A stretch of DNA of 9,215 bases from a virus (Duplodnaviria; Heunggongvirae; Uroviricota; Caudoviricetes): the IMG/VR virus record IMGVR_UViG_2703719355_000010; one strand, 5' to 3'. This document shows, in pieces, positions 1 to 9,215 of this stretch; within the stretch, counting starts at the first letter, position 1; each line of letters opens with the position of its first letter. The notes beneath the pieces were generated by a model, which saw only the letters and a program-made list of their open reading frames with translations, did no database searches and had not been told where the DNA came from. A program made the translations under genes and the position numbers.

Positions 1-65
1 CTCCTCCGGCAGAAGCAGAAAAAGCTTATTATGCTTCCATCGGAAACGATGATCTGGCAGCCTGA
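1..65 (+). CDS. IS3-family transposase (OrfB-like), C-terminal fragment; 5' part lies outside the window
   Basis: Frame starting at nt 3 translates to PPAEAEKAYYASIGNDDLAA, stop TGA at 63-65. This resembles the P-x-E-x-E C-terminal signature of IS3-family transposases and sits about 40 nt before the terminal inverted repeat. Confidence 0.5.
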   Translation, partial: PPAEAEKAYYASIGNDDLAA

Positions 66-82
66 GTTCACAGATAAAACAC

Positions 83-107
83 TCTCCAGGAAACCCGGGG
101 CGGTTCA
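83..107 (+). repeat. 25-bp terminal inverted repeat (IRR) of the IS element
   Basis: Sequence tctccaggaaacccggggcggttca; reverse complement TGAACCGCCCCGGGTTTCCTGGAGA. The identity between the two window ends stops exactly at position 107/108. Confidence 0.6.
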
Positions 108-197
108 GTCTGCGCCGCGCTGCGTGAGTTGAACAAGCACAGGGATATTGTACGACAGATTACTGATTCTTCCCGCCATGTTGCATCGGAAAAGTGA
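108..197 (+). pseudogene. 3' remnant (29 codons) of a gene interrupted by the IS; its position just upstream of the ren-like gene suggests the tail of a replication (P-like) gene
   Basis: Open frame begins at the IS boundary (VCAALRELNKHRDIVRQITDSSRHVASEK) and stops at TGA 195-197, 15 nt before the next gene's ATG. No start codon of its own. Identity is inferred from position only. Confidence 0.3.
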
Positions 198-212
198 TTG
201 CCGGAGGCGCTT

Positions 213-605
213 ATGGCAAAAGTATTTACACAAGAAGAGCGGGAAGAAGTGAAGGCGCGCATTGTGGAATTCGTGCGCCTGAGCGGACGAGAAACTTTTC
301 GACAACTGGCAGATAAAACGGGTGTCAGTAAGACCGCTATTCGTCGTTTATCTGGTGCGCTTGCGGCCAGTGGTGATGTCTGGCTCTCTGGTTGCGGGGT
401 ATTTCCATCAGAGCAGGCGTATCGCGTATGGCGTAAGACACCGGAGAAGGCTGCTGACCCGACACTGATTCGAAAGTTACCTGACGGAGAAATACGTCGT
501 TACAACAGACGGCAGAACATAATTTGTCGTGAGTGCCGCCAGAGCGAAGTTATGCAGCGTGTGCTGGCGTTCTATCGGGGAAACTTTCAGGAGGTGATGT
601 TGTGA
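213..605 (+). CDS. Ren-like protein, 130 aa (N-terminal HTH-like region, C-terminal ECRQS...RVLA motif resembling lambda Ren)
   Basis: ATG at 213 preceded by GGAGG at 203-207. C-terminal IICRECRQSEVMQRVLAFYRG resembles my recollection of lambda Ren (KECRQSAAMKRVLAVYG). Stop overlaps the start of the next gene. The ORF-track start at 198 is a TTG and less likely. Confidence 0.5.
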   Translation: MAKVFTQEEREEVKARIVEFVRLSGRETFRQLADKTGVSKTAIRRLSGALAASGDVWLSGCGVFPSEQAYRVWRKTPEKAADPTLIRKLPDGEIRRYNRRQNIICRECRQSEVMQRVLAFYRGNFQEVML

Positions 606-1075
606 GTGAGTCGGCTACCATTCTCGACATGTGCTGTGGCAGTCGCATGTTCTGGTTTGATAAGAATGACGAACGGGCGATATTTAGCGATATCAGAAAA
701 GAAGAGCACACATTGTGTGATGGACGACGCCTGATTATCAGTCCTGACCTGATAGCAGATTTTCGAGCATTACCATTTGCAGACGCATCGTTTCCGGTTG
801 TTGTATTCGACCCTCCGCATCTTGAGCGTGTTGGTGATAACGCCTGGATGGGAAAGAAATATGGACGGCTGAATAAAGATACCTGGCGAGATGATTTGCG
901 GCAGGGATTTAAAGAAGCCTTTCGTGTGTTGTGCCCACGCGGCGTTCTGATTTTTAAATGGAATGAAACGCAAATACCTGTTCGCCAGATATTGGTACTG
1001 ACCGACAGAAAACCTGTTATCGGTCAACGAACAGGAAAAAACGATAAAACCCACTGGATTATTTTTATGAAATAG
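602..1075 (+). CDS. Small phage-type DNA N6-adenine methyltransferase, 157 aa
   Basis: GTG at 602 with AGGAGG 8-13 nt upstream, overlapping the previous stop. SAM-binding-like LDMCCGSRMF near the N-terminus and catalytic motif VVFDPPH (DPPY/DPPH class). Size fits the small phage Dam-like family. Preferred over the upstream ATG at 533, which has no RBS and would overlap the Ren-like gene by about 70 nt. Confidence 0.7.
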   Translation: MSESATILDMCCGSRMFWFDKNDERAIFSDIRKEEHTLCDGRRLIISPDLIADFRALPFADASFPVVVFDPPHLERVGDNAWMGKKYGRLNKDTWRDDLRQGFKEAFRVLCPRGVLIFKWNETQIPVRQILVLTDRKPVIGQRTGKNDKTHWIIFMK

Positions 1076-1323
1076 GCATCCAGTGAGTAGGTTCGTAAGG
1101 TTACAGATGCGTATATCTGAATAATTAAATTCAGTTCTGTAAATAAAATTTAATCCTTAACCGGAGGGATTCCTGCACCCTCAGAACATCAGGAGACCGC
1201 CCGAAAGGGCGGTAATGAAAAATGGCTGAATGAACCAAATGGCTACAAAACACGATTACCGGAATTGAAACGGTAGTAGACGATAAATCGTTTGTATGTG
1301 ATGAAATAGTATTCAAAATCGAT

Positions 1324-1689
1324 GTGGTTAAAAACGTACTTACCGCATTTAAAGTCGCGCTGGTATCGCTGGAAGCCGAACCGGTGACATGGCGATATCG
1401 CTACGTGAGAAAAGGCGTTACGAACTTTCAGGAGAAGCCGTGGGTTGGTGACTGGAAATATGTACCGACAAAAGAGGATTGCAACGACAGGCCGAACTAT
1501 GAAATTCAGGCGTTATTCACGGCCCAGCCTGTGCCACTGACACCCGAAGGATTGATTAAAGCGGTGCGCTTCTATGAACAGGTTAAGAGTGAAAATCCGC
1601 CAGTCGAAACCGGAGCATGGAAAGACGCTGTTGACTGGGTGCTCAAAGAGGCTTGTCAGGCTGTAAACATTGGCATCAAAGGAGAGTGA
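1324..1689 (+). CDS. Hypothetical phage protein, 121 aa
   Basis: Uninterrupted ORF on the same strand as its neighbours, ending 1 nt before the next gene's ATG. Start is uncertain (GTG at 1324, no clear RBS). Shares the motif AL-x-SLEA-(D/E)-PV with the N-terminal region of the 1885..3306 protein. Confidence 0.45.
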   Translation: MVKNVLTAFKVALVSLEAEPVTWRYRYVRKGVTNFQEKPWVGDWKYVPTKEDCNDRPNYEIQALFTAQPVPLTPEGLIKAVRFYEQVKSENPPVETGAWKDAVDWVLKEACQAVNIGIKGE

Positions 1690-1690
1690 G

Positions 1691-1882
1691 ATGAACGGAC
1701 AAATCTCAATTGTTCGACCGGGAGCATGTGACGATTGCGAGATACGAATGATTATTCGTCTGGCGATGGGGAAAACAATAACTGCTCTCATTACTCCAGA
1801 AAATCTCGCATTAGCATTAACAGGAAAGTCAGACCTGCCAGTAGAGCTAAAGCTGCGAAATGTTGAGATTAAGGTGAAATAG
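1691..1882 (+). CDS. Hypothetical small protein, 63 aa
   Basis: ATG at 1691 with GGAG 6 nt upstream; stop is 2 nt before the next ATG (tight, operon-like packing). No family recognised. Confidence 0.5.
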   Translation: MNGQISIVRPGACDDCEIRMIIRLAMGKTITALITPENLALALTGKSDLPVELKLRNVEIKVK

Positions 1883-1884
1883 CT

Positions 1885-8336: not shown

Positions 8337-8411
8337 GCGGGCATCGTATAATGGCTATTACCTCAGCCTTCCAAGCTGATGATGCGGGTTCGATTCCCGC
8401 TGCCCGCTCCA
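8337..8411 (+). tRNA. tRNA-Gly (anticodon UCC; glyT-like)
   Basis: Acceptor GCGGGCA/TGCCCGC, anticodon stem TCAGC/GCTGA with loop CTTCCAA, T-arm GCGGG-TTCGATT-CCCGC, encoded CCA. Matches my recollection of E. coli tRNA-Gly2. Confidence 0.8.
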
Positions 8412-8417
8412 GTTAGA

Positions 8418-8463
8418 GTCTTTCAGTCTGCGATGATGGGAAATCCCGGAGTGACTGAAAGAC
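8418..8463 (+). repeat. Perfect 11-bp inverted repeat (GTCTTTCAGTC / GACTGAAAGAC) with a 24-nt loop, immediately after the tRNA array
   Basis: Read directly; no U-tract follows, so not a canonical terminator. Possible processing, structural or binding site. Confidence 0.5.
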
Positions 8464-8470
8464 GTTTAGG

Positions 8471-8543
8471 TTATGAATGATCGCTTTTTTTTGCAAAATT
8501 GCTGTGCAGAAATACTAACCTTCGGGCAGGCGATCATTCATAA
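8471..8543 (+). repeat. Perfect 14-bp inverted repeat (TTATGAATGATCGC / GCGATCATTCATAA) separated by 45 nt
   Basis: Read directly; the loop contains a T8 run. Could form a long stem-loop in RNA or be a protein-recognition or recombination site. Confidence 0.5.
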
Positions 8544-8618
8544 GCACTCTGCTTTTATTCCGATTAACTGTGGGTGGTTTGTTGGATAGAGTGCTTTCCT
8601 GACTGTAGATCCAATTTC

Positions 8619-8644
8619 GCCCGCTTTTGCGGGCTTTTCTTTTC
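8619..8644 (+). terminator. Intrinsic terminator upstream of the holin gene
   Basis: Hairpin GCCCGC-TTTT-GCGGGC followed by TTTTCTTTTC. Confidence 0.7.
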
Positions 8645-8703
8645 AAATCCCTTTCATCTCTCAGTGTAAAACTACGCCATCCGTTATTTGCGGAGGTGAG
8701 GCT

Positions 8704-8919
8704 ATGAAATCCATGGACAAAATTTCAACGGGCATTGCCTACGGCACCTCCGCAGGCAGTGCTGGCTACTGGTTTTTACAGTGGCTTGATCAAGTCAGTC
8801 CGTCACAGTGGGCTGCGATTGGTGTACTGGGGAGTCTGATTCTGGGCTTCCTGACTTATCTGACAAATCTGTACTTCAAAATCAGAGAAGACAAGCGTAA
8901 GGCTGCACGGGGAGAGTAA
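8704..8919 (+). CDS. S: Class II holin / pinholin of the phage 21 S type (S21-like), 71 aa, with dual-start motif
   Basis: Product [71 protein letters not shown] matches my recollection of S21 almost residue for residue, including the Met1/Met4 dual start (MKSM). GGAGG RBS 7 nt upstream. Confidence 0.85.
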
Positions 8920-8923
8920 TTCA

Positions 8924-9148
8924 ATGACTCAAAACTATGAAGTGATTGTGAAAGGGATCCGCAATTTTGAGAATAAAGTTACGGTAACTTTAGCGTTACG
9001 GGACAAAAAACGCTTTGACGGTGAAATTTTTGACCTGGACATCTCGCTGGACCGTGTTGAAGGTGCCGCGCTGGAGTTTTATGAGGCAGCAGCCAGAAGG
9101 AGCATCAGTGAACCGCCCCGGGTTTCCTGGAGAGTGTTTTATCTGTGA
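8924..9148 (+). pseudogene. Gene of unknown function truncated by the right-hand IS; the first 61 codons are native and the last 13 (EPPRVSWRVFYL plus stop) come from the IS end
   Basis: ATG 8924 with GGAGAG RBS. The reading frame crosses the IS boundary at 9109 and terminates inside the IS terminal repeat. The native N-terminus (MTQNYEVIVKGIRNFENKVTVTLALRDKKRF...) is not a recognisable endolysin. Confidence 0.45.
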
Positions 9149-9215
9149 ACTCAGGCTGCCAGATCATCGTTTCCGATGGAAGCATAATAAGCTTTTTCTG
9201 CTTCTGCCGGAGGAG
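9109..9215 (-). mobile_element. Right-end fragment of a second copy of the same IS3-family element in inverted orientation; the element continues to the right of the window
   Basis: Exact reverse complement of 1..107; begins at 9109 with TGAACCGCCCCGGGTTTCCTGGAGA. Confidence 0.7.
9151..9215 (-). CDS. IS3-family transposase C-terminal fragment, partial (mirror of 1..65)
   Basis: Same frame as the left copy read on the minus strand; stop codon at 9151-9153. Confidence 0.5.
   Translation of the reverse strand, partial: PPAEAEKAYYASIGNDDLAA

Follow-up and report, generated by a model that had tools for sequence, protein, structure and literature searches.

The DNA considered here is a stretch of 9215 nucleotides (the window), recorded in IMG/VR as the Caudoviricetes sequence IMGVR_UViG_2703719355_000010, whose two ends carry the same end of an insertion sequence (IS) in inverted orientation. 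The window is an entire short-read draft contig of an Escherichia coli isolate, derived from the middle of a Rac-like prophage, and comprises a 9.0-kb unique prophage stretch between two copies of IS1203/IS629. This arrangement very probably reflects two separate IS events within the resident prophage, with the composite transposon-like geometry being incidental. The coordinates of the features are collected in Table 1.

The repeat at the two ends of the window (bases 1-107 and 9109-9215) consists of perfect reverse complements of 107 nt with 100% complementarity, as found by an inverted-repeat search of the window, in which the next-best inverted repeat reaches at most 27 nt at 74%. Perfect complementarity over 107 nt is effectively impossible by chance. 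An earlier note on this DNA, made from the sequence alone, had taken these ends for the right end of an IS3-family element, and this agrees with the 107/107 identity to the right end of copies annotated as 'IS3-like element IS1203 family transposase'. IS1203 is an isoform of IS629 (PMC3271280). Bases 3-62 hold the final 20 codons of orfB, encoding the C-terminus ...PPAEAEKAYYASIGNDDLAA, and a stop codon follows at 63-65. The right inverted repeat follows and ends in ...GGTTCA at base 107, so that the terminus reads ...GGGGCGGTTCA, with the CA end of the IS3 family. Full IS1203 copies in the closest complete genome, Z1323CEC0019 (L001), measure 1310 bp, start with TGAACCGCCCCGGAAATCC and end with ...CCCGGGGCGGTTCA, which is the end sequence of the window; the imperfect 5'-TG...CA-3' terminal inverted repeats of the IS3 family are seen in the window end together with these full copies. 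The repeat stops precisely at the IS terminus, beyond which the flanks differ immediately (left flank GTCTGCG, right flank CTGATGC, both in the IS orientation), and it contains no sequence other than the IS end. Both right ends point inward, toward the 9-kb segment, as the earlier note had described. Since an IS copy possesses a single right end, the two junctions represent two distinct IS right ends in the genome. The IS copies found at both places in relatives (L001 and L002, the latter described below) are annotated with a programmed frameshift. No consensus match to an outward promoter facing the Ren-like gene was found within bases 1-200.

The origin of the window was traced by an exact-protein look-up of the 74-aa open reading frame (ORF) in which DUF1327 is fused to the IS at the right end. 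A single contig was returned, CYGN01000105.1 of the NCBI draft assembly GCA_001286505.1, which has a length of 9215 bp and is byte-identical to the window over positions 1-9215. Both ends of this contig halt at the same coordinate inside a multicopy IS: the 107-nt end is matched at 100% in 6229 records and in 4082 of the 5426 complete E. coli genomes (75%), with a median of three and a maximum of 50 places per complete genome. The terminal repeat marks an assembly break, because IS1203/IS629 is multicopy and the assembler was unable to pass it; the contig boundary that the earlier note had offered as an alternative is thereby established. An independent draft contig of the same prophage (L006) is likewise bounded by IS ends, and the window, starting and stopping at one IS coordinate, does not differ from other repeat-bounded short-read draft contigs. 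A terminal inverted repeat at both ends of a window should be read first as a contig boundary in a multicopy IS. Each end of the window presumably continues into a full-length IS, with the other halves of the cut genes lying beyond.

Between the IS ends, the window is collinear with a resident prophage. Bases 108-9215 align in one piece with L001 at 99.9% identity, while bases 1-107 remain unaligned. On the left, the IS cuts the DUF1627 gene, which lies upstream of the DUF977 (PHROG 142) gene and is the gene upstream of the ren-like gene that had been described as interrupted. Only the last 29 codons are kept in the window. In L001 the site is uninterrupted (...GAGCGTGTCTGCGCC...) and DUF1627 is intact, and the gene is uninterrupted in all four near-identical copies of the prophage, namely L001, L006, L007 (from the neighbouring accession series CYFR01) and L008 (a metagenome scaffold). 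Because these four are uninterrupted, the left insertion is private to the strain. FSIS11705876 (L002), the only one of the 5426 complete E. coli genomes with an IS at this site, carries a complete copy that is inserted at exactly the nucleotide used in the window, has the same orientation and is flanked by a clean 3-bp GTC duplication (GAGCGAGTC/IS/GTCTGCGCC, a slash here and below marking the junction). Judged from these comparisons, the most economical reading of the left junction is a simple insertion, specific to this strain, that follows codon 225 of 253, and the first TGA of the IS would end the truncated DUF1627 protein. The IS of L002, at 4770-6078, and that of the window, at 107/108, have hit the same DUF1627 nucleotide in genes and prophages that are only ~90% identical.

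On the right, the gene after the holin gene is interrupted, as the earlier note had stated, and can be named as DUF1327/ydfR, cut at codon 62 of 104. The 5' part of ydfR reads into the IS up to a stop codon at 9146-9148, giving the 74-aa fusion protein CUA54405.1. The intact gene in a further relative (L003) reads ...GCATCAGACAGGTCTTCC, and the junction in the window reads GCATCAG/TGAACC. L001 and L006 have an IS in the same orientation 2 bp further on, with the junction GCATCAGAC/TGAACC (site before the IS: CATCAGAC/IS), and in L001 this is a full 1310-bp IS1203. The far side of the L001 copy adjoins the Rz gene; the 3' part of ydfR, the lysozyme gene and the 5' part of Rz are deleted and there is no duplication. 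In L007, separated from L001 and L006 by a lone single-nucleotide polymorphism over 8.7 kb, an IS right end of the same orientation lies in the holin gene, after window position 8814, and in EPSSH018 an IS lies ~116 bp further into ydfR with an intact lysozyme gene downstream. Considering right ends only, IS629/IS1203 termini are located at 9122 in L007, 17003 in L001, 13359 in L006, 3840 in L010 and 9109 in the window, that is, at four different positions within ~400 bp of the holin-ydfR cassette, in related prophages of different strains and in one orientation. These junctions may stem either from independent insertions into a favoured region or from successive deletions beside the right end of one old copy. 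For the 2-bp offset, an assembly-graph artefact was considered, as both junctions of the window would share GTCTG if the right one were like that of L001, and was rejected, since the terminal repeat would then consist of the IS plus 5 bp. In a scan of the IMG/VR viral contigs, the left-junction sequence had no match, and the only match to the right-junction pattern was the IMG/VR copy of L006.

In the preferred reading, two IS copies would have been acquired by the prophage in situ, one in DUF1627, co-oriented with the prophage genes, and the other in DUF1327/ydfR, between the holin and lysozyme genes and in the opposite orientation. Each copy could have arrived by a simple copy-out/paste-in insertion with a 3-bp duplication, or by insertion followed by an IS-adjacent deletion, in one or both cases. 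Simple insertions would predict the left-end junction ...GGGAGCGTGTC/TGAACCGCCCCGGAAATCC or ...AAGTGGGAGCGTGTC/TGAACCGCCCCGGAAATCC beside the 5' part of DUF1627, and GGATTTCCGGGGCGGTTCA/CAGACAGGTCTTCC or GGATTTCCGGGGCGGTTCA/CAGACAGGTCTTCCTGG at the 3' part of ydfR, followed by lysozyme. A history like that of L001 would instead predict GGCGGTTCA/ATCCTCAGCCGAAGCC (Rz) on the right. Prophages are a common location of this element, with 62% of the IS629 copies in O157:H7 lying in them, and 21 of 47 IS629 sites showed duplications of 3-4 bp (PMC3271280). Some observations weigh against two in-situ events, and in particular against two simple insertions. Of each IS, 107 bp are visible, and the outer flanks and the window's own target duplications lie outside the contig. 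The predicted truncated DUF1627 protein (225 aa, based on the L001 allele) is absent from the protein collection by exact look-up, which leaves the left outer flank unconfirmed. Finally, given the 2-bp offset of the junction and the deletion-flanked, duplication-free IS in the relatives, a simple insertion on the right is not assured.

This last point leads to a doubtful, yet possible, alternative for one or both junctions, in which an older outer IS stayed in place and the DNA beside its right end was lost. On the left, such a deletion would amount to 4.3 kb, starting from the IS that the relatives carry by the early region, and on the right to a further 2 bp from an L001-type junction. An IS1203 is indeed present in L001 and L006, 4.3 kb leftward of window base 108, and its right end points toward the module. 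Neither of the two copies in L001/L006 is flanked by a target duplication, and each lies next to truncated genes; in L001, the copies at 2389-3698 and 17003-18312 bracket a 13.3-kb prophage core, have the flanks CAT/AAA and GAT/GTC, and adjoin truncated recE-like, helix-turn-helix, ydfR and Rz genes. The right-end junctions of L007 (8814), the window (9108) and L001/L006 (9110), three junctions within 300 bp and in one orientation, would fit a receding edge as well. However, the left junction coincides exactly with the site at which L002 has a genuine simple insertion, marked by a GTC duplication, and the IS of EPSSH018, located in ydfR with lysozyme intact, indicates that independent insertions do occur in the right-hand region. 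Three or four junctions of the same orientation are, moreover, not statistically unusual, and the deletions described in the literature mostly go with excision of the IS. It is rather improbable that the junctions call for something less familiar, either unrecognised target or orientation preferences of IS629/IS1203 in lambdoid prophages, or the stepwise deletion of DNA adjacent to the right end of one resident IS, with one step of 2 bp only. In the IS orientation, two of the junctions have the sequence TGTC/TG, and IS629 is described in the literature as an element without a sequence-specific target. Mildly unusual features are limited to two: the same DUF1627 nucleotide was hit in two diverged prophages, and junctions of one orientation cluster in the lysis cassette. 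An assembly artefact, with no IS at one or both ends, is very hard to maintain. The ends of a contig are the least reliable part of a draft and the 2-bp difference falls exactly at a contig-end junction, but L001 and the independent draft L006 have an IS at almost the same place on the right, the complete genome L002 has one at precisely the left position, and both junctions coincide with the IS terminus ...TTCA, as real insertions would predict and chimeric joins would not.

The earlier note had also pointed to a composite transposon-like geometry of the inverted IS copies and their 9-kb cargo, which could make the block mobilisable. The geometry stands: as in Tn10 and Tn5, two copies of one IS bracket a segment in inverted orientation, with their left ends directed outward, and IS1203 is an active, multicopy element. 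Right ends are what the window itself shows of the two copies, full-length copies being visible in relatives. A working unit of this kind is nevertheless highly unlikely. Unlike the cargo of Tn10 or Tn5, the segment is a contiguous slice of a resident prophage without a sign that it ever moved as a unit. At both edges it breaks off within a prophage gene, DUF1627 on the left, which runs uninterrupted in L001, L006, L007 and L008, and ydfR on the right, which does so in L003, and the cargo is not delimited independently of the surrounding DNA. The block stands in normal prophage order in every relative, including relatives without the left IS. No plasmid or phage record carrying at least 80% of the block was found, and movement into unrelated contexts was not seen, the junctions recurring elsewhere in IMG/VR only as the L006 duplicate. 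Furthermore, IS3-family elements transpose by a copy-out/paste-in route via a circle in which the left and right ends abut. A unit made up of the two copies would present two left ends instead of this left and right pairing. Homologous, RecA-mediated inversion of the 9 kb between the inverted 1.3-kb copies is plausible, and inversion between repeats is well precedented in prophages of enterohaemorrhagic E. coli (EHEC) (PMC7430833). The swapped target duplications that would be the signature of an inversion were not found at the two inverted copies of L001, and the L001 segment has the canonical gene orientation. With inverted IS copies 9 kb apart, short-read assemblies cannot fix the orientation of the segment.

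Taken together, the feature is of an already known kind, namely prophage-borne IS629/IS1203 copies at which a draft contig ends, and does not represent a new mobile element. Insertions of IS629/IS1203 in lambdoid prophages of EHEC, enteropathogenic and other E. coli share the identical terminal sequence, the prophage location, the disruption of genes and the strain-variable sites (PMC3271280, PMC7430833), and a 3-bp duplication is known at the left site of the window from L002. Nothing essential differs in the window; what is strain specific are the sites, at codon 225 of DUF1627 and codon 62 of ydfR. In related prophages, IS629-type copies occupy many further positions.

Table 1. Features of the 9215-nt window
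Position	Strand	Feature	Basis
1-107	+	right end of IS1203/IS629 (IS3 family); remainder of the copy beyond the contig	100% identity to annotated IS1203 copies
108-197	+	3' remnant of the DUF1627 gene, codons 225-253 and stop codon	alignment to the L001 coding sequence at 7329-8090
108-110	+	GTC, presumed right-hand copy of the 3-bp target-site duplication of the left IS	comparison with L002
213-8919	+	collinear middle of Rac-like lambdoid prophage	agreement of RefSeq annotation of L001, Pfam, PHROGs, NCBIfam, Rfam and ARAGORN
213-605		DUF977/Ren-like protein ('Ren-like exclusion protein', PHROG 142)	
602-1075		DNA methyltransferase	
1324-1882		hypothetical genes	
1885-3306		DUF551 protein	
3603-3927		sok/hok	
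4487-5086		NinB/DUF1367	
5086-5376		YbcO/DUF1364	
5373-5927		Q-like antiterminator DUF1133	
5947-6147		c4/isrK RNAs	Rfam
6201-6782		ORF6N anti-repressor	
7360-8073		AraC-type regulator, YdeO/GadX-like	NCBIfam matches below cut-off
8102-8411		four tRNAs	
8704-8919		class II holin	
8924-9108	+	5' part of the DUF1327/ydfR gene, 61 codons of 104	cut by the right IS at codon 62
9106-9108	+	CAG, last bases before the right IS; one target-duplication copy if a simple insertion	junction comparison
9109-9215	-	right end of the second IS1203/IS629 copy, opposite orientation; remainder of the copy beyond the contig	100% identity

The genes that the earlier note had listed between the IS ends (methyltransferase, hok toxin, Q, regulators, tRNAs and holin) are all present, the tRNAs being four in number. 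PHROGs, Pfam and the RefSeq annotation of relatives agree on the order NinB, YbcO, Q-like, holin and YdfR, which is that of a lambdoid nin-Q-lysis region. The Rac-like region has the same NinB-YbcO-Q ... tRNAs-holin-YdfR order with hok/sok, and phage Rac and induced E. coli phages give partial DNA matches to the window. In comparison with this region, the window is a mosaic variant, distinguished by the YdeO/GadX-like AraC regulator, the c4/isrK-ORF6N anti-repressor cassette and the Ile(CAU)-Lys-Thr-Gly tRNA set. The best match in the phage collection, PP818812.1, covers 41% of the block at 92.8% and is labelled 'Actinobacillus phage vB_Apl-pPE4', an unexpected host for a sequence of the E. 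coli prophage type.

Directly downstream of the Q-like gene and upstream of the ORF6N gene lies a set of antisense RNAs recognised by Rfam (c4-a1b1 at 5947-6000, isrK at 5960-6037 and C4 at 6063-6147), which together with ORF6N forms a P1/P7-immI-like or Gifsy isrK-like cassette in the lambdoid late-regulatory region. By exact look-up, the ORF6N protein of the window is otherwise found only in a 1.4-kb Logan contig (ERR178211) and a 2-kb metagenome scaffold. The four tRNAs are tightly packed between the AraC regulator and the holin and have the anticodons CAU, UUU (Lys), UGU (Thr) and UCC (Gly). The CAU tRNA is called Met by ARAGORN and tRNA-Ile in the RefSeq relatives, and an O145 prophage (L005) carries Ile-Arg-Arg tRNAs at the same place. 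A run of nine G at 7257-7265, ~95 bp upstream of the AraC-family regulator, has eight G in L001, L006 and L007, and could reflect a sequencing slip or, alternatively, a tract of variable length close to the promoter of the regulator. The window is separated from L001 by ten substitutions, all private to the window, five of which cluster at 3718-3727. This 10-bp cluster lies in the hok/sok locus at the mok start (ATGACTTGCACATG versus ATGCTCTACACACG) and resembles a short patch of gene conversion from a different hok copy. The 473-aa DUF551 gene contains two adjacent direct repeats of 32 nt, which lie 33 bp apart and share 81% identity (2473-2537), and the near-identical gene in L001 is annotated by RefSeq as several pseudogene fragments.

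In L001, a fragment of the tail-protein L gene directly follows the terminase gene and the lysozyme gene is missing, and this prophage is heavily eroded and clearly defective. The prophage of the window, which the earlier note had also considered defective, is likely to be so. The left IS, which runs in the direction of the prophage genes, would cost DUF1627 no more than its final 29 codons. The right IS lies against late transcription and should be polar on the lysis and morphogenesis genes, although a prophage with an stx2::IS629 insertion has been reported to still yield phage (PMC7430833). If a deletion on the left and/or right were true, the immunity and replication region, the lysozyme or both would be missing from the prophage. 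That the same or neighbouring sites are hit repeatedly offers a small lead on the target choice of IS629, and the two strain-specific IS629/IS1203 sites probably disable or modify the Rac-like prophage.

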